DNA of 64,000 bases from Planctomycetota bacterium (GCA_044225365.1 JBGAIQ010000002.1:211319-275318); one strand, 5' to 3'; shown: positions 17,654 through 61,538, counted from the first letter of the stretch. Numbers and translations are program-made. The notes: generated from the letters alone by a model not told the origin.

Positions 17654-18184
17654 TCATTTCTGGGCGATGAACCGTTGCAGCCACGCTCGAGCGAAGGCCC
17701 ATTCGCGACGCACGGTGCGCTCGTTCACTCCGAGCAAGGCGCCGATCTCCTGTTCGGTGAGGCCGGCATGGATCTTCAACTTCACGACCTTTCCGAGTCG
17801 CGGGTCGATCGCTTCGAGATCCGTGATCGCATCGTCGATCTGCGCGATGCCGTCGATGTCGCCCCGCGTGGCGAGATCGACCACCGAGATGTCTTCGCGA
17901 CGTCCTTCGCCGCCACGCTTCACGCGGCCCTTGCTTCGCGCATGATCGATGAGGATTCGCCGCATGGCGTCGGCGGCCGCGCCGAGGAATCGGGAGTCCT
18001 CCGCGCCGGCGAGTTCGCGCTCGCGCGAGAGTTTCAGGTACGCCTCGTTCACGAGAGCCGTGGGTTGCAACGTGTGGCCCGCTCGCTCGTCCTTCAGTTG
18101 ACGCGCCGCGATGGCGCGCAATTCCGACTGGAGCTGCGCGAAGAGTCGGTCGAGTGCCGGGTCGGAAACGTCATCCTCCGCCAT
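17654..18184 (-). CDS. Planctomycete-type ECF sigma factor (kinase-associated)
   Basis: ELRAIA, GHTLQPTALVNEAYLKL, AMRRILIDHAR, RTVRREWAFARAWL. Confidence 0.93.
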   Translation of the reverse strand: MAEDDVSDPALDRLFAQLQSELRAIAARQLKDERAGHTLQPTALVNEAYLKLSRERELAGAEDSRFLGAAADAMRRILIDHARSKGRVKRGGEGRREDISVVDLATRGDIDGIAQIDDAITDLEAIDPRLGKVVKLKIHAGLTEQEIGALLGVNERTVRREWAFARAWLQRFIAQK

Positions 18185-43646: not shown

Positions 43647-45131
43647 ATGGCGAACATCTCGCTGCGAATCGCAGGTCTCTGGTTCGGTCTCGCCGCCCTC
43701 GGCGCGAGCGCCGTACCCGAACTCGACTATCGCAATCCGATCGCGGGCGAGAAACTCGAGCTCTTCGTCGGTCACGCGACGCCGTACGCCTGGGTGGACA
43801 TCGTCGTCCTCGTGAACGGCAATCCCATCGCTCCCGAAACCAAACTCACGGACGGTTCGGGATTCGCGCGGTTCGAATTGCCGCTCCCCGTGGATGCGGT
43901 CGACAAGCGCTTCACGATCACCGCACTCGAACGACGGACGCAGACGCCGAGCCGTTCGGTCGACATCGATATCGTCGCGCCCTCGCTGCTCATCTCGGGT
44001 CGCGAGAACGGTGAGGCCGTGCTGTATCGAATTCCGGTCGAACCGCGACTGGACGCGCAAGATGGCGCGAGTTCGCCATTGCGGATGGAGCGAATGACGA
44101 GGAAAGTCCTCGGCAGCGGGCAGCCCGGCGGCGCGGTGCGCGATGGACACTCGACGAAGACTTTCGTGATCGCCGATGCCGAGATCGGTCGCGTGCGCGT
44201 CCTCGAGGACGACGTCACGAAGGCCGAGATCACCCCGCTCGATCTCACGCCGGATCTTCGCGGGATCGCGATCTCACCGGATGGTCGCACCGTGCTCGTC
44301 ACCGCCGCGGGCGGGCGCAACGGGAACGGCGAACTGATCCTCATTCCGACGAGTGACCCCTCGGTGCGAACGCGCATCGATCTCGGATATCCCCTCGGAG
44401 TCGATGGCGGGCGCAACATCGTCGTCAGCGAAGACGGCACGCGCGCATTCGTCGCGCTCGACGGTGCGTTCCTTCGCGACGTCAATCTCGTCGCACTCGA
44501 GACCGGCTCCAAGCTATTCGCCGTCGGTACGCCCGGCCGCGATCACGTGCGCGATCTGCGAATCGTGGGGGATCAACTCGTCGCACTCACCGGGCATGCC
44601 GATCCCGCGGTGGCGAACGGCGCGTATTCCGGCGTCGACATCACGAATCCGCAGCGCACGGGTTACTACCGCACGTCTTCACGCGAATCGAAGTTCGACC
44701 TCGGGAGTGCGGCGGATGGCCGGCTTGCGCTCTTCGTCCTCGAGAAGTCGCTGCCGAACGGAGTCGCGGGCGAGATCACGGTGATCGACGTGGCGACGAT
44801 GTCGAACCGTGGATCGTTCGCAGTGCCGAGCGGCGCGGACGCACTGTTGCTCACTCCGAATCCCCGATCGACGCGCGCAGCGCTGCTCTACGGCGCGGGA
44901 ACGGCGGACGCGACGCTCCGACCCCTCGACCTCGCGACGCATTCCGTCGATGTGCCCCATGCGCTCGGCTACCCCGCCCAGGAACTCGCGGTGCAGGGGA
45001 GTTCCACGAGCGTGAGTCTCTTCTTCCTCAAGGACGCGACCGGTCGGATGCGCGCCTTGCGTGCGAGCGATCTGGTGGAGTCGACTCTGCCGATCACGAT
45101 CGACATCGCGGCGATCTCGATCTGTCAGTGA
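43647..45131 (+). CDS. Secreted YncE/YVTN-like beta-propeller protein
   Basis: Signal peptide, GIAISPDGRTVLVT, IVVSEDGTRAFVA. AGGA RBS. Confidence 0.7.
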   Translation: MANISLRIAGLWFGLAALGASAVPELDYRNPIAGEKLELFVGHATPYAWVDIVVLVNGNPIAPETKLTDGSGFARFELPLPVDAVDKRFTITALERRTQTPSRSVDIDIVAPSLLISGRENGEAVLYRIPVEPRLDAQDGASSPLRMERMTRKVLGSGQPGGAVRDGHSTKTFVIADAEIGRVRVLEDDVTKAEITPLDLTPDLRGIAISPDGRTVLVTAAGGRNGNGELILIPTSDPSVRTRIDLGYPLGVDGGRNIVVSEDGTRAFVALDGAFLRDVNLVALETGSKLFAVGTPGRDHVRDLRIVGDQLVALTGHADPAVANGAYSGVDITNPQRTGYYRTSSRESKFDLGSAADGRLALFVLEKSLPNGVAGEITVIDVATMSNRGSFAVPSGADALLLTPNPRSTRAALLYGAGTADATLRPLDLATHSVDVPHALGYPAQELAVQGSSTSVSLFFLKDATGRMRALRASDLVESTLPITIDIAAISICQ

Positions 45132-45238
45132 GGGAGCAGGATGGAGGCGCGAGCGAGGTCCTCGATGCGGCAGGACCTTCCGGCGAAGCCCGTCGCTTCC
45201 CACCCCTTCATTGAACCCGCTCCCGAAGGGGCGATCTG

Positions 45239-46723
45239 ATGGTCGCGCCAGCGTGGGGGCGGAACGAGTATCCGAAGTCGGCGGTGACCCGAACCGTCGA
45301 ACCGGTCGCGAGCCAAGTCGCTCGCGACGACGTCCCATGGCGGCCCTCGTCCCGGACCTGGCTTCGACGGCTCACCCTCGCGCGCTACCTGCTGCTCGTT
45401 CCGCTCTCCGGAGCGTTGATCTACGCGCGCTACCTCGGGTTCATCGCGGATGCATCGCGGGTCTTCGCGGCCATCCTCTTCGCGACGACGGTTCAGACCC
45501 TGCTCCATCGTTTCGGCGCGCGCGATGGATCGAGCGAGCGCGTCGCGACGCCATGCCTCTTCTCGTCGCTGATCGCTGACGGCGCGATGCTCGCGGTGAT
45601 CGCTTCGGCGACATCGGGGCTCGCGAGTCCTTTCGCCTTCGCGCTCGTCCTTCCCGTGGCGATCGGGGGCCTCACGCTCGCTTTCGCGCCGGCATCCGCG
45701 GTCGCAGTCTCCGCGATCGTCGCACTCCTCCTGCTCGCGCAATCGGAACCCGCCTCCCAGAGTTCCCTGCCCGTCGTCGCTCGCGCGTTGGGTGTGGGTG
45801 GAGTCCTTCTCGCCACGTTCGCTGGCGCCCGGTGGTTCCGCGCGCGTCTCCAGTATCTCGAGGCGCGTCTCGTCGAGCGCGAAGCCACGCCGGCGCCTCC
45901 GTCCTCGCTCGAACCGCGGGTCGCGGACGTCGAGTTCGCCGGAATCGATTTCGAGGAACTCCCGCTCGTCGCGACGGAGATGGAGCGCGGCCCGCCTTTG
46001 CTGCCGTCGTCCGCGCGCACTGCGGCTTTTGAGGAAGCCGCCCTCGCGTCGATCGCGAATCAACTCGGCAGCGAACTGCGCGATCCTGCCGGCATCATTC
46101 GCGCGCGTGCGGAGAGCCTGCGCTTCGAACTCAAGGACCGCGAGCGTCGCGACCAGATCCTCGCCGAATTCGAGCGTCTCCTGCGCGCCGCGGATCGAGT
46201 CGACGACGTACGACTCACCCTCGCGACTCTGGCGAAGACCGCCGCACCCGGGCACGCCGAATGCGACGCGCGCGCGTTGGTCCTGGAACTGCGCACCGCG
46301 TTCGTCGATGAATTCGAGCGCGATGGCGTCAAACTGCGACTCGAGGCGCCGCGTGGCGTCTCGCCGGTTGCCTTGTCGCACAACGAACTGCGCCTCATCG
46401 TCGTGCGTCTGATCGATGCGAGTCGACGAGCGGCGCTCGCGGCGAGTCGCAACATCCGTGTGACGGCGCGAGTCTCGAGCCTGGGCTCGGGCGTCTGCCT
46501 CGAAGTCGAGGACAATCTGATGCTCGGCGCCATTCCTCCCGTCGATGCTGCCCCGACGCACGACGTCGAGAAGCGTCCCGGACTCGGCCTCGCCCTTTCG
46601 GTCGCGCGTCACATCCTCGCCCTGCGTGGCGGTATGCTCGAAGTCGTGCCGCGGCGCGGCGGTGGATTCGCGATTCGGGCGCACCTGCCGGTCGCGGCGT
46701 CGAAGTCGAACGCGGCCTTCTGA
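45239..46723 (+). CDS. Membrane sensor histidine-kinase-like protein with degenerate H and N boxes
   Basis: PilS-like TM region (D...TSGLASPF), GSELRDPA in place of AHELRNPL, G2 box GLGLALS..I...GG. Confidence 0.75.
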   Translation: MVAPAWGRNEYPKSAVTRTVEPVASQVARDDVPWRPSSRTWLRRLTLARYLLLVPLSGALIYARYLGFIADASRVFAAILFATTVQTLLHRFGARDGSSERVATPCLFSSLIADGAMLAVIASATSGLASPFAFALVLPVAIGGLTLAFAPASAVAVSAIVALLLLAQSEPASQSSLPVVARALGVGGVLLATFAGARWFRARLQYLEARLVEREATPAPPSSLEPRVADVEFAGIDFEELPLVATEMERGPPLLPSSARTAAFEEAALASIANQLGSELRDPAGIIRARAESLRFELKDRERRDQILAEFERLLRAADRVDDVRLTLATLAKTAAPGHAECDARALVLELRTAFVDEFERDGVKLRLEAPRGVSPVALSHNELRLIVVRLIDASRRAALAASRNIRVTARVSSLGSGVCLEVEDNLMLGAIPPVDAAPTHDVEKRPGLGLALSVARHILALRGGMLEVVPRRGGGFAIRAHLPVAASKSNAAF

Positions 46724-46788
46724 TTCGCGTGCGCCTTCCGTAAGGTGTCCCCGCGCGGCGACGTCGCCGGTGCCACGGAACGCAAGGA

Positions 46789-47832
46789 ATGCGCGCACTC
46801 CTCTACGCCAAGAAGCCCGTCGCCGCGGTGATGATGCGATCGATCGCGGATCGCCTCGCGCGCGAGTATGGCATGGAGATCCATGCTTGCTCGCGACTGT
46901 TCGGGCGCTCGGATGCCGGGGCCATCTTCGAAGCCGCGGGGCTGCCCGGCACCCGGGCGATCGCGAAGTGGCGCGCACGGCTCACGCGATTCGATCTCTA
47001 TCTCTCCGCGGACTTCGGCATCGTCGCACCCCGTGCGCGCGTGAAGGTGCACACCTTCCATGGCGTATCGTTCCGCAACCACGCCGTGAACCAGGCGGCC
47101 TTGCGCTACGACCTACTGCTCGTCCCAGGCCCGTACATGCGACGGCAATTCGAAAGTTTGGGGATCGTGACCGCGCTGAACGAGAAGCGGTTTCCGATCA
47201 CCGGTATGCCGAAGCTCGACGCGCTCGTCGATGGCACCCTGCGGCGGGCGAACATCCTCTCGCGATTGCGACTCGATCCCTCGCAGAAGACCGTTCTCTT
47301 CGCTCCCACCTGGTCGAAGAAGTTCTCGTCGTTGGAAGTCCACGGCGATCGGATGATCGAGGCGTTGCGTGCGTTGCCGTACAACGTGATCGTCAAGCTG
47401 CATGACAATTCGCGCGACCTCCGCAAGGCGACTCGCGATTGGGCGGCCGCGTTTCGCGCGATCGCGAACGATCGACTCACCTACGTCGAGGAACCCGACA
47501 TCGTTCCGTTGATGGTGGCTTCGGACGCGATCGTCTCCGATGCGTCCTCGACCGCGAACGAGTTCACGTTGCTCGATCGCCCGATCGTGTTCGTCGCGAC
47601 GCCGCACCTCGAACAGAAGGTCAAGGCGAAGGCGGATCTCGAGACGTGGGGACAGAAAGCGGGCGCGATCGCGTCGCGTCCCGAGGATCTCCGCGACGTC
47701 CTCGAGCACGAATTCGGCGATCCTCAGCGTCTCGCTCCCGTGCGTCAGGCGCTCGCCCGCGACTTGTTCCACGATCCGGGGAACGCGACGAAGAACGCCG
47801 TGAACGCGATACGCGCTCTGCTGCAGAGCTGA
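46789..47832 (+). CDS. CDP-glycerol glycerophosphotransferase (TagF/TagB-like) family
   Basis: FHGVSF, TGMPKLD, VLFAPTW, VKLH, SDASS, DRPI. Confidence 0.88.
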   Translation: MRALLYAKKPVAAVMMRSIADRLAREYGMEIHACSRLFGRSDAGAIFEAAGLPGTRAIAKWRARLTRFDLYLSADFGIVAPRARVKVHTFHGVSFRNHAVNQAALRYDLLLVPGPYMRRQFESLGIVTALNEKRFPITGMPKLDALVDGTLRRANILSRLRLDPSQKTVLFAPTWSKKFSSLEVHGDRMIEALRALPYNVIVKLHDNSRDLRKATRDWAAAFRAIANDRLTYVEEPDIVPLMVASDAIVSDASSTANEFTLLDRPIVFVATPHLEQKVKAKADLETWGQKAGAIASRPEDLRDVLEHEFGDPQRLAPVRQALARDLFHDPGNATKNAVNAIRALLQS

Positions 47833-47848
47833 TGGGTCGCGAGTCGAT

Positions 47849-48931
47849 TCAGGCGAGGTTCTTCAAGAGGGTCGAGAGTTCGTCGATCGTGCGCTGCCAC
47901 GGCATGGCTGCCTGCCGTCTGCGTTGCCCCTCGGCGAGTCGCTCGCGAAGCGTCGCATCCGACAGTTCCTCGAGGATGCGAGTGAGGTGCGGCACGTCGG
48001 GGTCGTACGACGGAACGCCCGTCTTCGTCGCACCCACGACGTGCGACGCCACGAGTCGGCCGGAGATCCCATCGTCGACGAGTTCGTTCATGGGCGGGAC
48101 GTCGTTCACGACGAGCGGCATCCCGAACGCGATCGCTTCGAAGAAGTGCAGGCCCGTGCCTTCCCATCGCGAGACGCCGACGCAGACGTCACACGACGCG
48201 AAGAGTCGATAGTAGTCGGCGCAATCGATGTCCTCGATGAGCTCGAGGATCCGCGGATCCCCCTTCGTATCGTACGGCTCGGCCAATGGCGATTCGATCT
48301 GCGCCTTCAGTACGAGTCGGAGGTGATCGCCTTTCGCATTGCGGAAGGCCTCGACGATCGAGCGGATCGGTTTGCGTGGCCCGAGGAGTCCGCCGGGGAA
48401 GAAGAAGGAAACGGTGTCAGAGTGCTCACGGGGGCGCGAACGCGGAACCGCGAGGAGTTCGGGATGAAGGCCCCAGAACAGCAGCGGACTTCGCATCCCG
48501 AGGCGCGCGTAACGCGACTGCGTGGCACGATTCAGCGAGTAGACGACATCGTAGGCGGCCTTGGCCTTGGCGACGTGTTCGCGCTCGAACGACTCCCACA
48601 CGAAGTACCCGACGTTCTTCACGCCGATCTCGCGCAACTTGCGCAGTTCCTTCCACTGGTAGTTCTGATTGAAGAAACACACTTCGATCGCGTGGCGTTT
48701 CGCGAAGCCGACGTACTCGTCGAGAGGGATCTCGAAGTGCGATGCGTCCTCGACGTTCTTCTGCGCCCACACGTCTTCGTGGTCGATCTTGCCGGGGAGC
48801 ACGTGTTCGTCGCGAGTCGGGCGAGCGAGCACGAACGTCTCGTGGCCGAGCGAGTCCAGGGCGTCGCGAAGGTGACGCGAGAGCGTCGCCTGGCCCTGAT
48901 TGCGCCACTGGCTGACGATCCCGATCCTCAT
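47849..48931 (-). CDS. Glycosyltransferase family 4
   Basis: RKP..., SRWEGTGLHFFEA..FGMP, PMNELV. Confidence 0.88.
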   Translation of the reverse strand: MRIGIVSQWRNQGQATLSRHLRDALDSLGHETFVLARPTRDEHVLPGKIDHEDVWAQKNVEDASHFEIPLDEYVGFAKRHAIEVCFFNQNYQWKELRKLREIGVKNVGYFVWESFEREHVAKAKAAYDVVYSLNRATQSRYARLGMRSPLLFWGLHPELLAVPRSRPREHSDTVSFFFPGGLLGPRKPIRSIVEAFRNAKGDHLRLVLKAQIESPLAEPYDTKGDPRILELIEDIDCADYYRLFASCDVCVGVSRWEGTGLHFFEAIAFGMPLVVNDVPPMNELVDDGISGRLVASHVVGATKTGVPSYDPDVPHLTRILEELSDATLRERLAEGQRRRQAAMPWQRTIDELSTLLKNLA

Positions 48932-49875
48932 GAGTCCTCGCTCCCCTTCGATGCGAGGCGCTTCGCGTTCCGCGCACGGCGGCGCTCGAGTGCCTGCTTC
49001 ACCGCGAGGGGCAACAGACGATGGAGGGGCGTCGCGGGCCGGTAGTCCTTCTGTCGCATCTCGAACCACACCACGCTCTCGATGCGGGTGATCTCGCTCG
49101 CCGTGAGGCGCTCGCGCCACGATTCGCGCTCGCCGGCGGTTCGCTTCAAGGGCTTCAGCGCCTCCGCCTTCCACGGCTCGCGCTCGATGTCGATTCCGAC
49201 CGGCGCGACTTCGTGATACGCGAGCATCGCCCAATCGAAATCGAGATGGATCGCGGTGCACATCCGACGCAATTCCGCCTCGGGGTTCGCGAGGAGATTC
49301 TCGTAGCGCACTTCCACGTAGGGCGCGTGGAGGGGACGCGCCTTGCGCGACGTCTCGAGGTAGCGCCGCCACACTTCGGCGTCCGTCTCGAGCGAACCGT
49401 TGGTGAACGGGACATTGCGCCACGATTCCGTCACGGCGCGGGGGTCGCGGACGATGTGGACGAAGCGGGCGTTCGGGAACCACCCTTCGAGTCGTTGCAT
49501 GGCGAGCAGGTGATTCGGTGTCTTCTCGCCGACTTGCGGTTTGTTCCGTTTGCGCCGGTAGGCGTCGAGGAGTTCGGCGAAGACGTCTTCGTATTCGAGG
49601 TCGCGATCGACGAGCCGCGCCGTGAAGTCCGCCGCATCGAGTCCCATCTCTGCGAATTCGGGAAGCGCCGTCAGATCTCGAAGCAGCTTCGTTCGATGCC
49701 GTGCATCGTCGAGTCTCCCGTAGTGCTTCCGCCGCTCCCCGAACTTCCGCACGAAGAACGTCTCCGGCGCGATCGCGACCTGCGGATGCGCGTCGAGCAT
49801 GCGCTGCAGCAACGTCGTGCCCGAGCGGGGAACGCCGACGAGGAAGATGGGACCGGGCTCGAGGAGCCGTGTCAT
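48928..49875 (-). CDS. PAPS-dependent sulfotransferase
   Basis: GVPRSGTTLL, EKTPNH, RDPRAVTES, RYENL. Confidence 0.93.
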   Translation of the reverse strand: MTRLLEPGPIFLVGVPRSGTTLLQRMLDAHPQVAIAPETFFVRKFGERRKHYGRLDDARHRTKLLRDLTALPEFAEMGLDAADFTARLVDRDLEYEDVFAELLDAYRRKRNKPQVGEKTPNHLLAMQRLEGWFPNARFVHIVRDPRAVTESWRNVPFTNGSLETDAEVWRRYLETSRKARPLHAPYVEVRYENLLANPEAELRRMCTAIHLDFDWAMLAYHEVAPVGIDIEREPWKAEALKPLKRTAGERESWRERLTASEITRIESVVWFEMRQKDYRPATPLHRLLPLAVKQALERRRARNAKRLASKGSEDS

Positions 49876-50822
49876 CGCGGTTCTCCGCGTTCCACGGAAG
49901 TCGCCGGCAGGTAGCCGAGCCGTCGCAGGAGGTCGCCGGCCTCGCGTTCGATCACGACCCTTCCCGTCACGTCGAGTTCGCGCTCGTGGCGAGCGACGGA
50001 ATCGCGGCGCACTCGCGTGAGCGCCGCTTCGAGCGCGCGGCGCGACGCATCGCTCGTGATCCCGAGGAAGTCGAGAGTCCTCGTCGCGACTCCCAACGGG
50101 CCGCTCGCGAGTTCCTCGTAGCGGATCTCGAGGTAACGCGAGCTTCCGAGTCTTGCGGTCTGCTCGAGAACGCTTTCCACGTGCCGTCGCCACGCCCAGA
50201 TGCAACGGTGGAGATCGCTGGTGCTCTCGAATTCGGCGCGTCGTTCGGGCTCGACCCAGAAGCGAGCGAAAGGACCGAACGGATAGCCGCCGCTCTCGAT
50301 CTGTCCGAGCTTCTTCCCGCGCTCGGTGAGCCACGGTTTCTCGACGTACGACAGTGCCGCATCGCGACCGTCGCGCACGATGTGCAGGAATTGCGCATCA
50401 GGAAACGTCCGCGCGAGGAACTCGATCACGAAGCAGTTCTGCGGCGTCTTGTCGGCGTAGCGTCGCGACAGTTCGCCGACCCTTCGCATGAGCCAGCGAT
50501 AGACGTTCTTGTAGAAGAACCGCGAGAACGACTCGCCCCAACGCTGTTCGTAGACGTAGCGCGCCGCGGCCTTCGTGATCGGCGGCTCGTAGTGATACGA
50601 GAACTCGGGGAGCGCTCCGATCAGGTCGCCGAGCAACGACGTCCCGGAGCGCGGCGCGCCGACGACGAACAATGGGTGCGCGAGGTTCGCCGATGCATAT
50701 CGCTTGGAAGGTGGTCCACTCGCGATCCCGGCTTCGCGACGCATCGCTTCGTCGACCTCCGCGGTCTTCCGCAACCAGGTGCGGAGGTTGAAGATCGTGA
50801 GAGGGGTAGGGTCGCGCTGCAT
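49872..50822 (-). CDS. PAPS-dependent sulfotransferase
   Basis: GAPRSGTSLL, DKTP, RDGRDAALS, RYEEL. Confidence 0.93.
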   Translation of the reverse strand: MQRDPTPLTIFNLRTWLRKTAEVDEAMRREAGIASGPPSKRYASANLAHPLFVVGAPRSGTSLLGDLIGALPEFSYHYEPPITKAAARYVYEQRWGESFSRFFYKNVYRWLMRRVGELSRRYADKTPQNCFVIEFLARTFPDAQFLHIVRDGRDAALSYVEKPWLTERGKKLGQIESGGYPFGPFARFWVEPERRAEFESTSDLHRCIWAWRRHVESVLEQTARLGSSRYLEIRYEELASGPLGVATRTLDFLGITSDASRRALEAALTRVRRDSVARHERELDVTGRVVIEREAGDLLRRLGYLPATSVERGEPR

Positions 50823-50828
50823 CGTGGA

Positions 50829-51857
50829 TCATTCCACAGCAGCGGCGGGATCGACTTCCAGACCGTGCACGCAGGAATCGACATCTCTCGTGTCGGTGAA
50901 GAGGTCCACGAGCTCCGCGGTCGCCTCGTCGATCACCAGGATCGTCGCGGGAGAGATGCCGACGTAGAGCTTCCCGGCGTGCCGCGCGAGTCCGCGTGCG
51001 AAGAGGGGCATCGACGCGCGTGCCGGCAGGAGATTCATCTTCTCCAGCTTCTTGCGCAATTGAAACCACGGCATCGCGAAGCGCACGAGCGATTTCACTC
51101 GGGGATCGTTTCCGTATCCGACGTGTCTCACGCGCTTTCGAGAGCCGAGATCGAAGACCAGGACGCCGCGGCCCACCGTGTGGTTCACGTAGGCACGATC
51201 GTCGACGACGAGCAGGTTGTGCGATCCATTGAGTGCGTTGTCGCGAATGAGGATCACGTCGCGAGTGAGATTGGCGATGCAGCCCTGCTTGGAGAACAGT
51301 GCGAGGATCTCGCCGCGATGGACCGCGACCGCGTTGAGATGCAGATGGTGGGGATGAGTGAAGTGCTCGCTGCCGAGGAAGCGCGTGCGGTTGTCGGCGT
51401 CCTTGTCGATCGAAAGAGGCGAGAGGCTGAGCGACTTCTGGATGTCAGGCATCTCGCGCGGGTGGTATGCCGCGAGAAGTCGGCCGTCGAGGAGATCGAT
51501 CTCCAGGGCGGCGTCCACCGCCGTCGAACTCGCGAGCAGCGACCGTTCGCCGGTGCGCACGATCTCATGGAGCGACGCCATCATGGGATGGGAGATGCGG
51601 CGAAGGGGGCGCAGCGATCGATCGAAGAACAGGAGCGTGTGGTACGAGGCGACGCAGATCTCTGCGCGATCCGGCAAAACGAGGATGCCGCGACCGCCGC
51701 GAGTGTTTCCGCGCGGATTCGGATCGTCGATCGAAGGATCGCTCGGCACGATCGGCGTGCGTGCTTCCACCTTCTTCTTCGCGAGATCGAGTACGGCGAG
51801 TTCTCCGCCGCGCGCGAGCGGCGCATTGCGATTCACCGTCGAGAAGTAGATCCGCAT
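50829..51857 (-). CDS. Hypothetical beta-propeller protein (aryl-sulfotransferase-like motifs)
   Basis: RGI/RGL blades, LHEI, HLHLNAV, SHNL. No signal peptide. Confidence 0.65.
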   Translation of the reverse strand: MRIYFSTVNRNAPLARGGELAVLDLAKKKVEARTPIVPSDPSIDDPNPRGNTRGGRGILVLPDRAEICVASYHTLLFFDRSLRPLRRISHPMMASLHEIVRTGERSLLASSTAVDAALEIDLLDGRLLAAYHPREMPDIQKSLSLSPLSIDKDADNRTRFLGSEHFTHPHHLHLNAVAVHRGEILALFSKQGCIANLTRDVILIRDNALNGSHNLLVVDDRAYVNHTVGRGVLVFDLGSRKRVRHVGYGNDPRVKSLVRFAMPWFQLRKKLEKMNLLPARASMPLFARGLARHAGKLYVGISPATILVIDEATAELVDLFTDTRDVDSCVHGLEVDPAAAVE

Positions 51858-51862
51858 CGAGG

Positions 51863-53203
51863 TCACCGCATCTCGTCGGCGGGGCGGAGATATCCGAGGA
51901 CGAGGAGGCGCTCGACGATCTTCTCCGCGGACTGCTGCGGAGTCTCTCGATCGGTACGGCACTCGACGAACGTGGAGGGATCGCCCGCCGGCGGCTCGTA
52001 GGGATCGTCGACGCCCGTGAAGCCCTTGATCTCACCGCGCCGAGCTCGCGCGTACTGACCCTTCTGATCGCGCTTCTCGCAGACGTCGACCGGGGCATTG
52101 ACGAACACTTCGATGTAGTCGCCGATGCGGCGTTGATTCTCCGCCCGCACGCTCTTGTAGGGGGCGATCGCCGCAACGACGACGGTGCCACCGTGACGCG
52201 TGATCTCGCCGGCGACGAAACCGATGCGCCGGATGTTGAGGTCCCGATCCTCTCGCGAGAACGTGAGACCTTTCGACAGGTGCGTGCGAACGATGTCGCC
52301 GTCGAGGAGGGTCGAGCCGCGTCCGAAGTCGAGCAGACGCCGGGTGAGGATCGCCGCGATCGTCGATTTGCCCGACTGCGAGAGTCCGGTGAGCCAGATC
52401 GTCACTCCCCGGCGATGCGCGGGAGGGAGGATTCGCTCACGCAATTCGTCGAGGGCCGCGGATTCGGGAGCCGCGGGGCTCGCCGCCGGCTGCGCCAACA
52501 TTTCGGCAGCGCCGAACGCTCGCGCCACGATCGGGCGCAGTTCGCGCCGCACCTCCGGGACGACGATGCAGGTGATCTTGCGCGGCGGCGTGATCGCGCG
52601 CATCCTCGCGACGATCGTCTTCACGCGCAGGAAGTGTCGCAGATCGCCCGCGGGGACGTCGCGCGATGGGATGAGGACGAGCGTCGAATCGCCCGCACTC
52701 GCGATCGCCGCCAACTCCGCCGCCGAGGGCAGGTCGTCGCAGTAGTACGCGCGATCGCTCGCTGCCACGGCTCCGGGCACCGCGCGGAGCTCGGGGAAAT
52801 CGGCGTGATGGGGGAGGCGAACGAGTTTCAGCGTTCCCGCGGCGCAGGGGGAGTCGCTCGGATCGGTCGACGGCGCAGGGAACGTCGATGTCACTTCGAG
52901 GAGTGCGAGGATCACGCCTTCGGTGTTGCGAAGCGCGAGGAGATCTCCGCTCCGCGTTTCGCGATCGACCCGCAGCAGCACGGGCGCGGGAAAGGGCGTG
53001 CCGTCCTCGAGCGTGCCGCGCGTTTCGATCGAACGGGTCGTCGCAGCGTCGCAATAGCTCGCGAGTGGGGCGTAGGCGCCCATGAGCAGGAGTTCGAGAT
53101 CGGCGAGTTCGGAGCGCTCGAGCGTGCGCGGACGCGCGTTCGCGAGGCGAGGCGAATCCTCGGGTTCCTTCTCGATCTCGATGGCTCGGCTCGTGCCCGT
53201 CAT
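51863..53203 (-). CDS. cysC: Adenylyl-sulfate kinase fused to a decayed ATP-sulfurylase domain
   Basis: C-terminal WLTGLSQSGKST, LLDGD.VR, RD.KG.Y, FTGVDDPYEPP. N-terminal DLELL..GAYAPL without QTRNP/HxxH. Confidence 0.9.
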   Translation of the reverse strand: MTGTSRAIEIEKEPEDSPRLANARPRTLERSELADLELLLMGAYAPLASYCDAATTRSIETRGTLEDGTPFPAPVLLRVDRETRSGDLLALRNTEGVILALLEVTSTFPAPSTDPSDSPCAAGTLKLVRLPHHADFPELRAVPGAVAASDRAYYCDDLPSAAELAAIASAGDSTLVLIPSRDVPAGDLRHFLRVKTIVARMRAITPPRKITCIVVPEVRRELRPIVARAFGAAEMLAQPAASPAAPESAALDELRERILPPAHRRGVTIWLTGLSQSGKSTIAAILTRRLLDFGRGSTLLDGDIVRTHLSKGLTFSREDRDLNIRRIGFVAGEITRHGGTVVVAAIAPYKSVRAENQRRIGDYIEVFVNAPVDVCEKRDQKGQYARARRGEIKGFTGVDDPYEPPAGDPSTFVECRTDRETPQQSAEKIVERLLVLGYLRPADEMR

Positions 53204-53216
53204 GCGCGCGATCGGA

Positions 53217-55388
53217 TCACTCGTCGTCCCGACGGAAGAACTTGTCGATCGTGGCCTGCGACTCGCCCCGCAGCATCGCTTCCATCTGCAGGCTGAAGGC
53301 GCGGGCGTAGAGGCCGTTCTTCGCCATCAGTTCGTCGTGCGTGCCCTCTTCCTCGACGACGCCGCGCTGGATCACGACGATGTGATTCGCCCGCCGGATC
53401 GTCGACAGACGGTGCGCGATCACGATCGTCGTGCGGCCCACCATCAGGTTGTCGAGCGCCTTCTGGACGTGCGCTTCCGACTCGGCGTCGAGCGCCGACG
53501 TCGCTTCGTCGAGGATCAGGATCGGAGGGTTCTTCAGGATCGCACGGGCGATCGCGATGCGCTGCCGCTCGCCACCGGACAGCGAGAGTCCGCGTTCTCC
53601 GAGTTCGGTGTCGTAGCCTTGATCCTTCGCCATGATGAAATCATGCGCGCAGGCGGCCTTCGCGGCCTCGATGATGCGTTCGCGCGAGATGTCCTTCAGC
53701 CCGTAGGCGATGTTCTCGGCGAGCGTGTCGGAGAACAGGATCGTTTCCTGTGAGACGATGCCGATCATCTGACGCAGGCTCTTCAGGGTGTACTCGCGGA
53801 TGTCCTTGCCGTCGATCGTGACGCTGCCCTTGTTGGGGTCGTAGAAGCGCGGCAGCATGTCGACGAGGGATGTCTTGCCGGCGCCGGACGGACCGACGAT
53901 CGCGACCGTCTCGCCCTTGCGGATCGTGAGCGACAGGCCGCGCAATGCGCGACTGCCGCGGTGATAGCTGAACTTGACGTCGTGGTACTCGATCTTGTCG
54001 TCGAAGCGCTCGAGCGGGATCGCGTTCGGAGCGTCGGGGATCTCGGGAGTCTGGTCGAGCAGGCCCACGATCTTCTCGCCGGCCGAGATGCCGCGGACGA
54101 AGTCGTTCTGATACTTCGCGAGGTGGCTCACCGAACGGTTCAGCTTCTGCATCGCGAAGAGGACGGTCGTCAACACCGGAATGGTCATACCGTCGCGACC
54201 ATCGATCACGAACTTGCCGAGGACGAGGATCCCGACGCCGATCGTCATGTCGCCGATCAGTTCGACGATGGGCTCGCTCACGGCGCGCAGGCGATAGGTC
54301 TCCATCTGGCGCTTGTAGGTGGAGCGAGCGGCCACTCGAAAGCGCTTGATCTCGTGCTTCTCCGCGGTGAACGCCTTCACCATCTTCTGGCCGATGATGG
54401 CTTCGGACACGATCGCGAAGAGGTCGGCTTCGCCCGCTTCGGACTGCTTGTCGCGGAAGCGCAGCCGATCGCCGATGATGCGGATCGGAACGAGCGCGAG
54501 GAGCACCATCGCGATTCCCATCACTGCGATCCAACCGAGATGGGAGATCGTGTACCACAGCGCGGCGGCGAAGACGCAGACCTCGGTCACCATGCCGAGC
54601 GAGATGCTGATGAACATCTGCCGCAGGCGCGTGATGTCCTTCGTGAGGCGCGACAGGATGCGGCTGCTGTGCTGGGTCTGATGGAACTGCAGCGGGAGGC
54701 GGACGAGCGTCTTGAAGCAGTCGTCGCGCATGTCGCGGATCATCTTCCGGCTCACGGTCGCCATCATGATCTCGCGGATGTAGTCGAGCAGGGCGGTGAG
54801 CAGGGCGAGCGCGACGAAGCCGAAGACGACCGCGCGCAAGTTGACCTTGCGCTGGTCCTTGGTGAGCGCCGGCGCAGGTTCGGGCTGCGCGTTGGGGTTG
54901 TTCGGATCGAGGATGGGGTCGACCGGAGCGTCGTGCCCTCCGAACCAGCGCGTGACGGTCCTCACGACCTTGTCGAGCGTGCCGAACTTCAGTTCCTTGT
55001 GCTTCGACGCCGGGTCCTGCGGGCTGATCGTCGAGATTCCGGCCTGCATCCACGAGAGCTGGAACGCGGCGAGCGATCCGCCGATGATCGAGAGCATGAC
55101 CGACAGGATCACCTTTGCGAGGTGCGGCCGCATGTAGCTGCCGATGACCGCGAAGACGCGCCGATCCTCCGCGGAGACGGGATGGAGCAGTCGCTTCACG
55201 TACTGCCAGCCCGTGACCTTCAGCTTCTCCTCGACCTCGCGCTTCTCCGCTTCGTCGAGATCCGCGCTCATTCCGCTCTGGAACACGCCGGAATCAGCGG
55301 AGTCTGGTCCGACGATCTTCCGCTTCTGCGGAGAGTCGTCGTCGGGCGCTCCGGACAACGGAGAGCCGGGGGCGTCGCGATCGATCAT
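53217..55388 (-). CDS. MsbA-like ABC exporter (TMD + NBD)
   Basis: Six-TM domain, GPSGAGKT, LSGGERQR, ILDEATSALD, AHRLST. Confidence 0.93.
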   Translation of the reverse strand: MIDRDAPGSPLSGAPDDDSPQKRKIVGPDSADSGVFQSGMSADLDEAEKREVEEKLKVTGWQYVKRLLHPVSAEDRRVFAVIGSYMRPHLAKVILSVMLSIIGGSLAAFQLSWMQAGISTISPQDPASKHKELKFGTLDKVVRTVTRWFGGHDAPVDPILDPNNPNAQPEPAPALTKDQRKVNLRAVVFGFVALALLTALLDYIREIMMATVSRKMIRDMRDDCFKTLVRLPLQFHQTQHSSRILSRLTKDITRLRQMFISISLGMVTEVCVFAAALWYTISHLGWIAVMGIAMVLLALVPIRIIGDRLRFRDKQSEAGEADLFAIVSEAIIGQKMVKAFTAEKHEIKRFRVAARSTYKRQMETYRLRAVSEPIVELIGDMTIGVGILVLGKFVIDGRDGMTIPVLTTVLFAMQKLNRSVSHLAKYQNDFVRGISAGEKIVGLLDQTPEIPDAPNAIPLERFDDKIEYHDVKFSYHRGSRALRGLSLTIRKGETVAIVGPSGAGKTSLVDMLPRFYDPNKGSVTIDGKDIREYTLKSLRQMIGIVSQETILFSDTLAENIAYGLKDISRERIIEAAKAACAHDFIMAKDQGYDTELGERGLSLSGGERQRIAIARAILKNPPILILDEATSALDAESEAHVQKALDNLMVGRTTIVIAHRLSTIRRANHIVVIQRGVVEEEGTHDELMAKNGLYARAFSLQMEAMLRGESQATIDKFFRRDDE

Positions 55389-55416
55389 GTTCCGGTCGAG
55401 CTCTCGCTCGCCTCCA

Positions 55417-56556
55417 TCAACCCGCTCTTGCGGCTGCGATCTCTCGCAGTTCGCTCGGCGCTTCCAGTTCGAGGAGATCGTAGATCGTTCGGGCTGCGCG
55501 CTGCGCGGCCTTGCCAGGTTCGAAGAACAGGTCCTGCGCGATCGCTTGGCGAATCGGACTCTTCTCGTGCGCGGTCTCGAGGAGCCGAGGTACGACCTCG
55601 CGGAGGTCCTTGCCGTGCTCGACCACTTCGCCGCCCTTGCGGCCCCAGGTGTCGAGATCCATCGCACCTTCCGAGCGCCGACCGTTCAGGATCTCGGGCA
55701 CGTCCATGAAGATGATCGGGCGGTCGCGCAGCGTGTACTCGAACGCCACCGAGGAGGCGTCGGAGATCAAGAGATCCGCGGCGGCGAGCAGGGGCACGAC
55801 GTCGGAACCGAAGTCGACGCGCATCCGTGGATGCGTCCAGACCTTCAGTTTCTCGCGCCAATCGAAGCCGACACTCGGATCGGGCTGGGCGTGGTCGTGC
55901 AGCTTGACGATCACGTTCACCGGCAGGTCGTGGAGGGCCTTCAGGATTTCTTCGCCTTGGCGATACAGCGAATTGCCGCGGTCGCCGGTCGGGGCGTAGA
56001 GCACCGTGGGAAGGGCGGGATCGAGCTGCATTCCGAGCAGGATCTCATTGCGCTTCAGCGAGCCGTCGACGAGTCGGTCGAGCTTCGGCATGCCGACCAT
56101 CTGCAGTTTCGGATCGCCCTCGCGGTAGAGCCCGCGCTCCAGGAAGCGCCTGCGGTGATAGGGACCGGGGAGGAACAGCCGGTCGTAGGAGTACGTCTTC
56201 TCGGTGACGGCGCAATTCTTGAACGACACCCCGTGGAAGACCTGGACGCGCACCTTCGCCCTCAGGGGCTGGGCGCGCTCGACGAAGTTGGCGCTGAGGT
56301 ACAGATCGCACGGGAAGAACTTCGCGAACTTGTGGCTCCACACGCCGCGCGTGATCCCGAAGTTCCCGAAGAACCGATGCACGTCCCCGTCGAAGTCGCG
56401 CACGCTTTCCCGCGTGTGCGTCAACTTCGCGGTGTGCATGACCTTGAGTCGCGGATCGCCCTGCAGCCGATCGACGATCGGCTTGTACATCACGACGTTC
56501 ACGCCGTTGGCGGCGGAGCAGAGGATCCAACGGCGACGCCGGAGGGGGAAGGACAT
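55417..56556 (-). CDS. CDP-glycerol glycerophosphotransferase (TagF/TagB-like) family, paralogue of 46789-47832
   Basis: FHGVSFKN, GMPKLD, VLYAPT, VKLHD, SDASS, DRPI. Confidence 0.88.
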   Translation of the reverse strand: MSFPLRRRRWILCSAANGVNVVMYKPIVDRLQGDPRLKVMHTAKLTHTRESVRDFDGDVHRFFGNFGITRGVWSHKFAKFFPCDLYLSANFVERAQPLRAKVRVQVFHGVSFKNCAVTEKTYSYDRLFLPGPYHRRRFLERGLYREGDPKLQMVGMPKLDRLVDGSLKRNEILLGMQLDPALPTVLYAPTGDRGNSLYRQGEEILKALHDLPVNVIVKLHDHAQPDPSVGFDWREKLKVWTHPRMRVDFGSDVVPLLAAADLLISDASSVAFEYTLRDRPIIFMDVPEILNGRRSEGAMDLDTWGRKGGEVVEHGKDLREVVPRLLETAHEKSPIRQAIAQDLFFEPGKAAQRAARTIYDLLELEAPSELREIAAARAG

Positions 56557-56607
56557 CTTCGACACGGTCTCCTGGCTCGAAATACAATCCGGGCATCTTA
56601 CGATCCC

Positions 56608-57414
56608 TTGGCATTCGATCCAAGTTCCTTCGAGCTTCCCTCTCCGTTGCGATATCCATCGAAATCCCTGGTGATTGCGCGCTCGCCCTACTCCGAGACG
56701 AGTCAGGTCGTGCAGTTCCTCACCGAGCGTTCGGGGTTCGTCACGGCGCTCGCGCGCGGAACCTATCGTGAGAAGAGTTCGTTCGGCGGACCCCTCGATC
56801 TCGTCACCGCGGGGCAGGCGGACTTCTCCTCGCGTCGCAGCAGCGAACTCGAACTCCTGCATTCGTTCACGCTCGATCGGCCCTATCGCCGGCTGCGCGG
56901 CGACCTGCGACGCTGGCTCGCGGCGGCCCACGTCATCGAGTTGCTCCGACCCTTCGCCTGGCCCAAGGACCGGGCGCACGAGATCTACACCCTCGCGATC
57001 GCGACGCTCGACGTCCTGGAGACCGCGGTGGACGACGCGACGGTCGATGCCGCGCTCGCCTACTTCGGGGCGCGATTGCTGCTCGTCGCCGGATTCCAAC
57101 CTCAGCTCGACGCTTGTTGTTCGTGTTCGCGTCCGCGCGAGAGCGCGGGCAAGGTCGCGTTCTCCTCGCGCTTCGGCGGAATCCTCTGCGCGGCGTGCAG
57201 CGCGCGGGACGCTGCAACGGTACGCTGTTCGCCCGCTGCCGTGGATCTGCTGAAGCGACTGCTCGGAGCGAGCGACTCGCGAGCGCCGGCGGATGGCAAT
57301 GCGCTGTCCGAAGTCCGCGCGATCCTCGATCGGTTCGTGGAAGCCCGGGTGGAGCGGAAGCTGCACGCCGGAAAGTGGATCCAGGACGGGATTCCGCCGC
57401 TGAAGAAACGCTGA
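56608..57414 (+). CDS. recO: DNA repair protein RecO
   Basis: YSETSQVVQFLT..G...ARG, GFQPQL..C..C...GGILC..C. Start uncertain. Confidence 0.9.
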   Translation: MAFDPSSFELPSPLRYPSKSLVIARSPYSETSQVVQFLTERSGFVTALARGTYREKSSFGGPLDLVTAGQADFSSRRSSELELLHSFTLDRPYRRLRGDLRRWLAAAHVIELLRPFAWPKDRAHEIYTLAIATLDVLETAVDDATVDAALAYFGARLLLVAGFQPQLDACCSCSRPRESAGKVAFSSRFGGILCAACSARDAATVRCSPAAVDLLKRLLGASDSRAPADGNALSEVRAILDRFVEARVERKLHAGKWIQDGIPPLKKR

Positions 57415-57424
57415 GGCTCCGTCG

Positions 57425-58483
57425 ATGATCGATGTTCGTTGCTCTTCGTTCGCGCCCCGCGGGCTTCCCCGTGCAATCGGAGCGATCGTCGCGCTCTGTC
57501 TCCTCGTCGCCCTCTCCGCGTGTTCGACGATCCCAAGGATCGATGGCAAGGAAGCGACCGAGTTCACCGTGGGGCAAGTCCTGGATGCGGGCGAGGCGGC
57601 ATTGCGGGACGGGGATCCCATACAGGCGGCGGCGCTCGGCGAGTTCGTGCTCCGCAATCACTTCGACGATGCGCGCCGCGAGGATGCGCGATGGCTCGCC
57701 GCGGAGGGTCGGTTCCAGCACGGGGACTACTCCGACGCGCTGATCCACTACCGCCGACTGGTCGAGGACGACCCGACGTCGCCGAAGACGCCGCAGGTGC
57801 CCGACCGGTTGTGGACGATGGGGAAGACATTGATTCGTGAGCAGTCGGCGCGCTTCGCCGACCTCAGCAACCGGCACGACATCGGCGTCGAGGCCTTGAA
57901 CCTCCTCGTCACGCAATACCCGCAGCACGAGTACGCCGACGATGCCTGGCGCGAACTTGCGATCGCGTTCCAGAACGACGGTCTGCACCAGGCGGCGGCG
58001 GACTGTTTCGAGAAACTCGCGCGTGAGTTCCCCGACGGCGAGTGGGCCGACTACGCGCTGTATCACGTGGCGGCCGAGTACCGCGAGATGTCGCGCGGGC
58101 ACGAGTACGACGTCGAACCCCTCTTCGTCGCCTACGGCGCCCTCGGTCGTTATCTCGAGGCGTTCCCCCAGGGCAACTTCGCCGCGGCGGCAGCGACCGA
58201 GCGGCGCGAGATCGAGTCCGAGGTCACCCGCCGAGAATTGAAGATTGCAGAGTACTACCGGTTCCGGGGCAGCCTCGAAGGGGAGCGCCTGCACCTGGCG
58301 AATGCCGCGCGGCGCTTCCCCGAGGCACCGGAGGCGAAGGATGCGGCAGCCCGTCTCGAGGCCGCTGGGGTGAAGGTCCAGGACAGCCTGGATCTGCTCT
58401 CACCGCGCGTCGATCGCCCGCGATGGGAGGCGGGGAGTCAAAAAGACGTGATCGAGACCCGACCGCATCCCGGCGATCACTGA
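57425..58483 (+). CDS. bamD: Outer-membrane assembly lipoprotein BamD-like (TPR)
   Basis: LSAC lipobox, TPR units with YP/FP, ELKIAEYY. Lies between recO and lptE. Confidence 0.75.
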   Translation: MIDVRCSSFAPRGLPRAIGAIVALCLLVALSACSTIPRIDGKEATEFTVGQVLDAGEAALRDGDPIQAAALGEFVLRNHFDDARREDARWLAAEGRFQHGDYSDALIHYRRLVEDDPTSPKTPQVPDRLWTMGKTLIREQSARFADLSNRHDIGVEALNLLVTQYPQHEYADDAWRELAIAFQNDGLHQAAADCFEKLAREFPDGEWADYALYHVAAEYREMSRGHEYDVEPLFVAYGALGRYLEAFPQGNFAAAAATERREIESEVTRRELKIAEYYRFRGSLEGERLHLANAARRFPEAPEAKDAAARLEAAGVKVQDSLDLLSPRVDRPRWEAGSQKDVIETRPHPGDH

Positions 58484-58679
58484 CGGGGCCGTCGCGGGTC
58501 GCACTCCTCACAACTCACCTGGCAACGGCTGCATCTGGCGGATGCCTTCGCAACGGAGCGGATTAGAAGAGAATCCGAATGCGTGGCTTTGAGTAGGATG
58601 GTCGCCTCGCGAATTCAGATTCCAAAGCTGCGGACTCGTCACTCGAAGTGGCCCGCGCTTTGCCGGTAGAGTTCCGCCT

Positions 58680-59201
58680 ATGGCAAGCATGTCACCCCTG
58701 AATCGTTCGAGGCGCCGCGTCGCATGCGGGCTCCTTCTTGCGGCGTTCAGCAGCTTCTTCAGTTGCTCGGGCTATCGAAACGATCCCGTGTTCCCCGAAG
58801 GCATGCGCCACATCGCGGTGCCCGTGTTCGACAACGACACCTACTATCGCCAGATCGAACTCGCCCTCACGCGAAACGTGTGCGATGAGATTCGTTCGCG
58901 TCCGGGTCTGAACATCACGGACGAAACCCATGCGGATGTGATCCTGAAGGGCAAGATCAGGAAAGTTTCTCAGAGCGTGTTGTCGATCACGCATCAGGAG
59001 AAACCCAACGAGGAGTCCGCGACGACCTCGGTCCAGTGCGAGTTGGTCGATGCTCGCACCGGGCGGTCTCTCAAGAAATTCTCGGTCTCCGAGCGCGTCG
59101 ACTACGTGCTCCTGACAGGCGAAGGGCTCCAGACGGCGCAGCGCGAGGCGTACTACAACCTCGCGCGGAAGATCGTCTTCGAGCTCGAAAGCGACTGGTG
59201 A
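58680..59201 (+). CDS. lptE: LPS assembly lipoprotein LptE family
   Basis: SCSGY, IAVPVFDNDT, ADVILKGKI, LARKIV..LE..W. Confidence 0.8.
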   Translation: MASMSPLNRSRRRVACGLLLAAFSSFFSCSGYRNDPVFPEGMRHIAVPVFDNDTYYRQIELALTRNVCDEIRSRPGLNITDETHADVILKGKIRKVSQSVLSITHQEKPNEESATTSVQCELVDARTGRSLKKFSVSERVDYVLLTGEGLQTAQREAYYNLARKIVFELESDW

Positions 59202-59204
59202 TAC

Positions 59205-61538
<2,334 letters not shown>

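Follow-up and report, generated by a model that had tools for sequence, protein, structure and literature searches.

We analysed a window of 64,000 nucleotides from a Planctomycetota bacterium (GCA_044225365.1, JBGAIQ010000002.1:211319-275318), in which the region 46789-56556 holds a candidate locus for a sulfated, polyol-phosphate-modified surface glycan. This region spans exactly from the start of one TagF-like gene (TagFA) to the start of another (TagFB). Seven co-directional genes on the minus strand, in the order TagFB > ABC > sat*-cysC > PROP > ST2 > ST1 > GT4, are separated down the run by 28, 13, 5 and 6 nt and then by two overlaps of 4 nt, and the last one is convergent with TagFA, their stop codons lying 16 nt apart. 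At the other end TagFB is divergent from a recO-bamD-lptE flank. Genes were called from frame plots of third-position GC (GC3) and lists of start codons and then checked against Pfam and NCBIfam; the G+C content of the window is 62-67%. The first-pass annotation of this DNA had described a packed minus-strand run converging on a second TagF-like gene, and every item of that description was correct in these gene models. The features are as follows.

46789..47832 (+): TagFA, TagF-like phosphotransferase, 347 aa; PF04464, 66.3 bits, E 3.1e-18, cut-off 22.1
47849..48931 (-): GT4 glycosyltransferase, last gene of the run, 360 aa; Glyco_trans_1_4 and Glycos_transf_1
48928..49875 (-): ST1, sulfotransferase of the PAPS (3'-phosphoadenosine 5'-phosphosulfate) type, 315 aa; Sulfotransfer_3 (PF13469), 143 bits, E 2e-41
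49872..50822 (-): ST2, PAPS-type sulfotransferase, 316 aa; PF13469, 99 bits, E 6e-28; PF00685, E 7e-12
50829..51857 (-): PROP, six-bladed beta-propeller by AlphaFold2 (AF2) model, 342 aa; alternative GTG start at 51866
51863..53203 (-): sat*-cysC, 446 aa; PUA_2, 47 bits, and APS_kinase, 181.8 bits
53217..55388 (-): ABC, MsbA/ABCB-type half-transporter, 723 aa; ABC_membrane and ABC_tran
55417..56556 (-): TagFB, TagF-like, first gene of the run, 379 aa; PF04464, 53.4 bits, E 2.6e-14, cut-off 22.1
45239..46723 (+): histidine-kinase-like membrane gene directly upstream of TagFA; HATPase_c, 28.3 bits; four hydrophobic segments
Upstream flank: recO, bamD (57425-58483), lptE (58680-59201), ftsH

Comparison with related genomes revealed two conserved ends, TagFB with the MsbA-type ABC exporter and TagFA with the sensor kinase, and a variable cassette between them. 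The present cassette is, as judged from its domains, probably a sulfation set with an adenosine 5'-phosphosulfate (APS) kinase, PROP, two PAPS-dependent sulfotransferases and one GT4. The number of predicted terminator-like sites at 45000-59500 (9, against 8.3 expected) showed no excess, and in the promoter and terminator scan of the same interval the counts matched the shuffled level.

The TagF-like enzymes and their exporter

Both TagFA and TagFB score above the PF04464 gathering value. A profile made of TagFB and 35 relatives (36 sequences, including the four other paralogues of this genome) matched only TagF (E 3e-20), Cps3D (2e-19) and TarL (4e-14) among the PDB sequences, so that the earlier assignment as TagF-like holds against the alternative of Kdo or sialyl transferases. 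The AF2 model of TagFB has a GT-B fold with a mean predicted local distance difference test (pLDDT) of 91.0, and a Foldseek search with it gave TagF chains at ranks 1-12 (3l7m, E 2e-14, query TM-score [TMq] ~0.63), further matches being Bcs3 (TMq 0.65), TarL and Cps3D, followed by UDP-GlcNAc 2-epimerases. Seven residues (His108, Lys218, His220, Asp261, Asp266, Ser268 and Arg336) and a D-x-S-S motif are invariant in 36/36 sequences of the family. His108 and His220 would correspond to the two active-site histidines of TagF (His444 and the second His mutated in entry 3L7M). TagFA, 39% identical to TagFB (alignment A2), retains all 12 invariant columns, and its orthologues in relatives are 55-59% identical. 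Both proteins have a single domain and are far under every NCBIfam equivalog cut-off, the best score among the TarF/TarB/TarL models being 31 bits for the TarF equivalog (cut-off 550).

Orthologues of TagFB (59-63% identity) were found in all 11 genomes examined of the same family, each with 3 to 8 TagF-like matches. A weaker homologue is present in 8/15 genomes of one sister family, and none was found in the other three families. Among 20 longer homologues with extra domains, three were fused to ABC_membrane and two to a nucleotidyltransferase of the NTP_transf_3/IspD type, and these fusions therefore support coupling to an exporter and the use of CDP-alcohol donors. The other partners were GT2, GT4, methyltransferase and Fe-ADH domains and a phytase-type propeller. 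The latter is found in the closest fused homologues of TagFB (P0122 and P0123, 57% and 53% identity), as a C-terminal PF02333 domain (E 5e-56 and 3e-61). Matching long TagF-phytase open reading frames (ORFs) occur in relatives (G009:C177, G004:C632, G001:C114, G006:C390), and this paralogue is seemingly absent from the present genome.

As the first-pass annotation had noted, there is no TagD-like cytidylyltransferase in the window, which gave zero matches to PF01467. The whole genome has four, of which three are NadD, HldE and RibF. The fourth, C89:78756-79148, matches best TIGR01518, glycerol-3-phosphate cytidylyltransferase, so the proposed genome search for tagD did give a candidate, but one that stays under the family cut-off (76 bits against 165). 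No glycan or CDP-alcohol genes were found in the surroundings of this gene nor around the TagF paralogue at C30:190427. A TagF-like paralogue adjoins an M32 carboxypeptidase that extends, outside the window, over two overlapping ORFs (C30, ~191.6-193.4 kb; L085:11578-13391) covering profile positions 2-252 and 214-489, by frameshift, pseudogenisation or assembly error.

The ABC_membrane and ABC_tran domains place the exporter among the ABCB-type transporters. It scored 476.6 bits with MsbA_lipidA (TIGR02203), under the cut-off of 602, and it is the best of six full-length matches to this model in the genome, three others having 428-450 bits; the description as MsbA-like is supported. The protein has an N-terminal extension of ~90 aa, and neither its 816-aa nor its 723-aa form gave a Peptidase_C39 match in Pfam or NCBIfam. 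Elsewhere in the genome, at C43:4864-7268, an NTP_transf_3 gene (E 2e-30) is directly upstream of another full-length MsbA-like ABC gene (441 bits, TIGR02203).

Like TagF/TarF/TarL, Cps3D and Bcs3, the enzymes of the locus belong to PF04464, and the TagFB model shares the GT-B fold with them; two histidines and the D-x-S-S motif are conserved in the subfamily, and the diderm host is common to these enzymes and the capsule polymerases Cps3D and Bcs3. They differ from these wall and capsule systems in being partnered with an ABCB/MsbA-type exporter instead of TagGH or KpsMT, in the absence of KpsC/KpsS and tagD from the locus and in being joined to sulfation genes. TagF-like polymerases of Gram-negative capsules have already been published (PMC5974469, PMC8262930, PMC10299916, PMC11666461). 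Our literature search retrieved no description of an ABCB-type exporter partnering TagF-like enzymes, nor of TagF-like enzymes combined with sulfation genes.

Sulfation genes and the propeller family

Both sulfotransferases are well above the Sulfotransfer_3 cut-off (27 bits) and have a predicted 5'-phosphosulfate-binding loop, PRSGTT at the N-terminus of ST1 and PRSGTS in ST2. The closest solved sequences are TPST1/2 (E 8e-14) and the CurM sulfotransferase for ST1, and TPST2 (E 6e-11) and Stf-like proteins for ST2. The best NCBIfam match was the Nod-factor sulfotransferase NoeE, with 48 bits for ST1, far under the cut-off. Orthologues of ST2 in relatives are 55-62% identical. The neighbouring GT4 has Gtf1 (4pqg, E 2e-6) as closest solved sequence and orthologues of 57-60% identity in three loci of relatives (L016, L017 and L125). 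Three more Sulfotransfer_3 genes are found in this genome, at C37:7459-9125, C37:10672-17452 and C63:55765-56328; the C37 pair, adjacent and near two ABC ATPase matches, may be a second sulfated-glycan locus.

The APS kinase part of sat*-cysC reached 187.4 bits with TIGR00455 (equivalog-domain, cut-off 138.7), in addition to its PF01583 match, and its P-loop GLSQSGKST aligns with those of solved APS kinases. The N-terminal part is a PUA-like remnant of ATP sulfurylase that has lost the catalytic domain; PF01747, which describes this domain, had no match in the protein nor in the whole genome. In one genus an intact Sat-CysC occupies the position of sat*-cysC. It has 565 aa, with PUA_2, ATP-sulfurylase (258-261 bits) and APS_kinase domains (L016:8258-9955, L017:5889-7586). 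The kinase part here is 73% identical to that of this intact protein, of which residues 178-387 have no counterpart, 113 residues standing here where the relative has 210. A natural series is thus found inside a single family, with a bifunctional PAPS synthase at one end and, at the other, a kinase whose Sat domain has decayed. Known Sat-CysC fusions and two-domain APS kinases (PDB 2gks, 3cr8, 23vk, 23vl) share the PUA-like and sulfurylase-like N-terminal part and an active-looking kinase, and the present protein differs in lacking the entire PF01747 domain; 3cr8 is reportedly inactive as a sulfurylase. Another contig of the genome carries a PAPS_reduct-family gene (C84:98859-99539) and, near it, a 675-aa ORF that ends in a second APS-kinase domain (C84:96768-97217), a pair that we read as putative cysD-cysNC. 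Because the Sat catalytic domain is gone genome-wide, APS must come from these cysD-cysNC-type genes. The dedicated PAPS supply of the first-pass annotation is therefore upheld for a locus-borne APS kinase but reduced in scope, as the decay of the Sat domain leaves a second APS kinase and no full pathway.

PROP has no Pfam or NCBIfam family match. Its AF2 model (pLDDT 94.9) is a six-bladed beta-propeller, which we searched against 48,161 PDB representatives. The top matches were YWTD and NHL propellers (Z 22-25, ~240 aligned residues), and the longest alignments were with entries of arylsulfate sulfotransferase, ASST (3elq; 281-283 of 342 residues, Z 21.2-21.4), Cpz4 (9kf6) giving Z 21.4 over 271 residues. 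The top 1000 chains of Foldseek gave the same picture, and the fold of the predicted model does not discriminate between propeller types. At the sequence level, none of 32 family members matched the ASST families PF05935 and PF14269 at E <= 1, and the PROP profile had no significant match in PDB sequences (best E 0.044, an NHL repeat). At the same threshold, Pfam gave weak matches to DUF4915 in 9/32 members (best E 0.008) and to PQQ_2 in 6/32. In the protein atlas PROP falls only in 'hypothetical' clusters, and of the clusters with a name DUF4915 comes closest (0.93); a literature search on this Pfam family found no paper; the search on the PROP family itself retrieved no description either. 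Among the 120 listed of 184 homologues detected, none had a precomputed Pfam domain and every source name was 'hypothetical protein'. Kinship with the phytase propeller fused to the TagF paralogues was ruled out (hhalign probability 0.2). No fused longer forms of PROP were found at E <= 1e-10 among 8000 scored candidates, which is weak evidence.

In the alignment of the 32 members 31 columns are invariant, and many of them are His, Arg or Asp. According to the secondary-structure map, Arg56/Gly57, His97, His173/Asn175, His213/Asn214 (nearly invariant), Arg288 and His331 start the strand that follows a long inter-blade loop. The conserved residues would therewith be placed at the mouth of the central tunnel, the usual position of the active site in propellers. 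PROP resembles ASST and Cpz4 in its six-bladed propeller, and it adjoins PAPS-dependent sulfotransferases; Cpz8 and Cpz4 carry out a two-step sulfation. Unlike them it is predicted to be cytoplasmic, with ~340 aa; no sequence kinship was found and YWTD/NHL propellers score higher. Of the two or three sulfuryl transferases first proposed, ST1 and ST2 stand as enzymes of the PAPS type, and PROP as the third is a structural lead only.

PROP was found in 7/41 related genomes (6/11 in the same family, 0/29 in the other four families of the order). A contig scan with the single sequence gave 223 pattern matches, none confirmed. A scan with the PROP alignment (A1), taking one genome per species, recovered 51 loci, which are spread over Chloroflexota, Aminicenantes/Acidobacteriota, Clostridia, Myxococcota, Kuenenia, Pirellulales, KSB3, Cytophagia and further groups. 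We clustered the ORFs of 120 aa or longer in all six frames of these loci, and three clusters are Sulfotransfer_3 by their representatives; shadow ORFs may inflate the counts per locus. Such ORFs are present in 36/51 loci (33/46 without the five loci of the own family) and in 26 of the 33 loci of at least 15 kb; in 20 loci one is within 500 bp of PROP, and up to 12 were counted in a single locus. By our own arithmetic, 5 Sulfotransfer_3 genes in a genome of 6.5 Mb would touch ~1.5% of random 20-kb stretches. Other neighbours are an ABC ATPase cluster with a Wzt_C representative (17 loci), GT4 (12) and GT2 (11), and CysC is near PROP only in the own family. Some of these loci, L048, L049, L050, L052 and L075, from Clostridia and Aminicenantes metagenome-assembled genomes (MAGs), are sulfotransferase-rich islands with 9-12 such ORFs in ~21 kb around PROP and several recurrent ORF clusters without a Pfam family. 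An Anaerolineaceae MAG (L070:10001-12102) has two PROP paralogues in tandem, which share 39% and 36% identity with PROP of the window and are followed by three sulfotransferase-like genes.

Conservation and modularity of the locus

TagFB and ABC are adjacent in 11/11 loci examined of the family, and bamD is upstream of TagFB in 10/11, the eleventh contig beginning at TagFB. The pair formed by the histidine kinase gene and TagFA was found in L087, L089, L114, L115, L117, L120, L125 and L128, which belong to several genera. The arrangement exceeds chance, given the constant TagFB-ABC adjacency and the presence of orthologues of PROP, ST1, ST2, GT4 and CysC at this locus in several genera. What follows ABC differs among genera. 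In two of them it is GT4 and then PROP, where one contig ends, and another has GT4, PROP, ST2, ST1, two glycosyltransferases and a beta-helix protein. The genus with the intact Sat-CysC has a 369-aa hypothetical protein before it, without homologue in the present genome or in other PROP loci, and then PROP, ST1, a glycosyltransferase and GT4. In a further genus ST2, ST1 and a glycosyltransferase are found and there is no PROP in the genome, and one last genus has GT4, an alpha/beta hydrolase, a GT28-like gene and GT4, with no sulfation genes. Sulfation genes are found in 5/6 other genera of the family, and ST2-ST1 either adjoin TagFA or come directly after ABC in several of them. Conserved flanks with a variable middle are the pattern of surface-polysaccharide loci such as those of O-antigen and capsule. 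The synteny across planctomycete relatives that the first-pass annotation had called for is thus real for TagFB-ABC, but the cassette changes from genus to genus, and one genus has no sulfation genes in it.

The converse scan, with the TagFB alignment (A3), kept 76 loci, 46 of them outside the family. A TagF-like gene is followed, within 700 bp and on the same strand, by a full-length ABC exporter in 14/46 of these, or in 13/42 when at least 2 kb of downstream sequence was available. The TagF-exporter pair and the PROP-sulfotransferase set are independent and widespread modules that have been combined in this family. As they are separable and meet only here, their product may or may not be one molecule.

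Proposed pathway and alternative explanations

We consider it probable that this is a Phycisphaeraceae-type surface-glycan biosynthesis locus, by which a lipid-linked glycan is built and sulfated at the cytoplasmic face and then flipped by the ABC exporter. No signal peptide or transmembrane window was predicted in any of TagFA, TagFB, GT4, ST1, ST2, PROP and CysC (7/7), and for this reason cytoplasmic assembly and sulfation followed by ABC export is the likeliest order of events. GT4 would add sugars to a lipid-anchored acceptor at the cytoplasmic face of the inner membrane, and TagFA and TagFB would add polyol-phosphate to the same acceptor from a CDP-activated alcohol. APS would be provided by the cysD-cysNC-type genes and phosphorylated to PAPS by the CysC of the locus, ST1 and ST2 would transfer the sulfate from PAPS, and PROP would participate in the sulfation chemistry. 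Finally, the exporter would flip the completed product, an anionic glycolipid or polymer, to the periplasmic face. Gene content, assignments of fold and family, the predicted cytoplasmic location of the enzymes and synteny are what the analysis shows; the acceptor, the donor, the order of the steps and the single common product are inferred. The window contains PSCyt2/PSD1 genes, typical of planctomycetes, which fits the planctomycete assignment of the host, an organism of the Phycisphaera group. Diderm with lipopolysaccharide (LPS) is also a fair description, since waaA, lpxK, hldE, four GT9 genes and lptE are present in the genome.

The scheme has precedents. According to PMC11641403, it is a hallmark of sulfated polysaccharide synthesis that a glycan cluster contains both PAPS and sulfotransferase genes. 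As here, the cluster of Vibrio sp. KMM 8419 (PMC11641403) and the synechan xss genes of Synechocystis (PMC8205485) combine own copies of PAPS genes with sulfotransferases, glycosyltransferases and an ABC exporter. The Vibrio cluster has cysNDC and a KpsMT-type exporter, whereas the present locus has only CysC, its Sat domain being dead, and exports through a transporter of the MsbA type. The sulfation passages on the former (PMC11641403) and the synechan abstract (PMC8205485) mention no TagF-like gene. In Sinorhizobium meliloti, also a diderm, LpsS likewise uses PAPS to sulfate an envelope glycan anchored to a lipid; it is annotated in PMC12445080 as a member of the Stf0 family and is a lone gene, while ST1 and ST2 are Sulfotransfer_3 proteins in a cassette.

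Several observations weigh against a single sulfated polyol-phosphate glycan. The nearest solved relatives of ST1 and ST2 are protein-tyrosine and not carbohydrate sulfotransferases, and the locus contains no initiating phosphoglycosyl transferase, Wzx/Wzy or ABC-2 exporter. It also lacks a cytidylyltransferase, the C89 candidate is below the cut-off, as given above, and orthologues of this gene (67-76% identity) were found in only 6/11 genomes of the family and 0/29 of other families. The other five genomes of the family, where no match was found, consist of 500-1050 contigs at a completeness of 70-93%. Such a distribution, without being proof, would fit a family-specific CDP-alcohol supply better than a housekeeping enzyme. 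Alignments by hidden Markov models put His220 of TagFB ~12 residues off the TagF histidine. PROP is not obligatory for ST1/ST2, since two genomes of the family have ST2-ST1 but no PROP, and in three loci no sulfotransferase adjoins PROP. In the 46 TagF-subfamily loci outside the family there is not one match to a sulfotransferase, PROP or CysC, and polyol-phosphate and sulfate are thus linked through a single bacterial family, the members of which do not count as independent cases. The pathway of the first-pass annotation is sustained in part, as a conserved locus of glycan type whose separable modules may or may not make one joint product.

A specific form of the proposed pathway would take ABC as the true MsbA and the locus as a variable LPS-core (waa-like) region, where lipid A-core would receive, before it is flipped, sugars from GT4, glycerol phosphate from the TagF-like enzymes and sulfate from the sulfotransferases. 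We regard this as unlikely, if worth serious weight. The exporter is the best MsbA_lipidA match of the genome (476.6 bits), the locus abuts recO-bamD-lptE-ftsH, a neighbourhood kept in 10/11 family loci, the genome has waaA, lpxK, hldE and four GT9 genes, and no enzyme for priming undecaprenyl phosphate is in the locus; sulfated LPS is moreover known, from the passages on LpsS of S. meliloti (PMC12445080). Yet ABC does not reach 602 bits while three other full-length exporters score 428-450, and lpxK is found elsewhere, on a contig where a different ABC pair lies 14 kb away. In addition, TagF-then-ABC pairs and TagF-ABC fusions occur in many phyla, and because of them a dedicated exporter fits better than a housekeeping MsbA. 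The modularity also raises the question of two unrelated pathways lying side by side, TagFB-ABC-TagFA making a polyol-phosphate product and CysC-PROP-ST1-ST2-GT4 acting on something else, for instance a second polysaccharide, a glycolipid or a metabolite. The absence of sulfotransferase, PROP and CysC from the 46 outside loci speaks for it, as does the fact that among PROP loci TagFB and ABC are found only in four from Phycisphaeraceae, those whose sequence reaches far enough. Furthermore, one genus has no sulfation genes between the same flanks, and in one relative ~25 kb separate TagFB-ABC-GT4-PROP from ST2-ST1-GT4 and TagFA. Against it, the seven genes either overlap or leave gaps no longer than 28 nt, with no excess of terminator-like sites (9 against 8.3), ST2-ST1 stand beside TagFA or directly after ABC in several genera, and in all genera seen the cassette is enclosed by the same pair of conserved flanks; on the whole we find two pathways distinctly improbable.

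The combination of a sulfotransferase, an ABCB-type exporter and PAPS genes recalls the raxST-raxA-raxB system, and ST1 and ST2 could then be tyrosine sulfotransferases of the RaxST/TPST type modifying a peptide or protein exported by ABC. TPST1 (E 8e-14) and TPST2 (E 6e-11) are indeed the closest solved sequences. This explanation is very hard to sustain, as ABC has no C39 peptidase domain and no gene for a membrane-fusion protein or a precursor peptide was seen in the run, where small ORFs were not specifically searched. Moreover, the neighbours are GT4 and TagF-like genes, PROP-sulfotransferase loci elsewhere hold GT2, GT4 and Wzt-type ABC genes, and the best NCBIfam match is to the sugar sulfotransferase NoeE.

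The surface-glycan pathway can be extended to a more ambitious and rather doubtful proposal. PROP, cytoplasmic and with a putative ring of invariant His, Arg and Asn at the tunnel mouth, may be a new catalytic family of glycan sulfation that marks sulfated-glycan loci in roughly ten phyla. Separately, the TagF-like enzyme with its ABCB-type exporter may be an undescribed synthase-exporter module for polyol-phosphate glycolipids of diderms, both being joined in Phycisphaeraceae for a polymer with sulfate and phosphodiesters. As such a catalytic family, PROP could relay sulfate like ASST or Cpz4-type enzymes, or it could process a sulfated intermediate or 3'-phosphoadenosine 5'-phosphate (PAP). 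TagF-like capsule polymerases, PAPS-bearing glycan clusters and sulfated LPS are already known, and the greatest novelty of the locus is PROP. Planctomycetes are best known for consuming sulfated algal polysaccharides. If the surface-glycan pathway is true, they also produce sulfated, phosphate-bearing envelope glycans, and the locus gives a handle on the little-known surface chemistry of Phycisphaerae. It offers three testable units: the widespread pair of a TagF-like gene and an ABCB-type exporter, found naturally fused as well; a propeller family, so far uncharacterised, that accompanies sulfotransferases in different phyla; and, within one family, the series from intact Sat-CysC to CysC with a decayed Sat. 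Sulfotransferases acting on sugar polymers are also sought as biocatalysts.

Other genes of the window deserve mention. After ftsH, at the contig end, there are a GT4 gene (61557-62717, minus strand) and a GT2-like gene (62776-63936, minus strand), and the glycan region may continue past the assembled sequence. Far from the locus, at 13530-17549 on the minus strand, a 1339-aa Ser/Thr protein kinase with WD40 propellers is encoded beside the gene of an extracytoplasmic function (ECF) sigma factor (17654-18184, minus strand).

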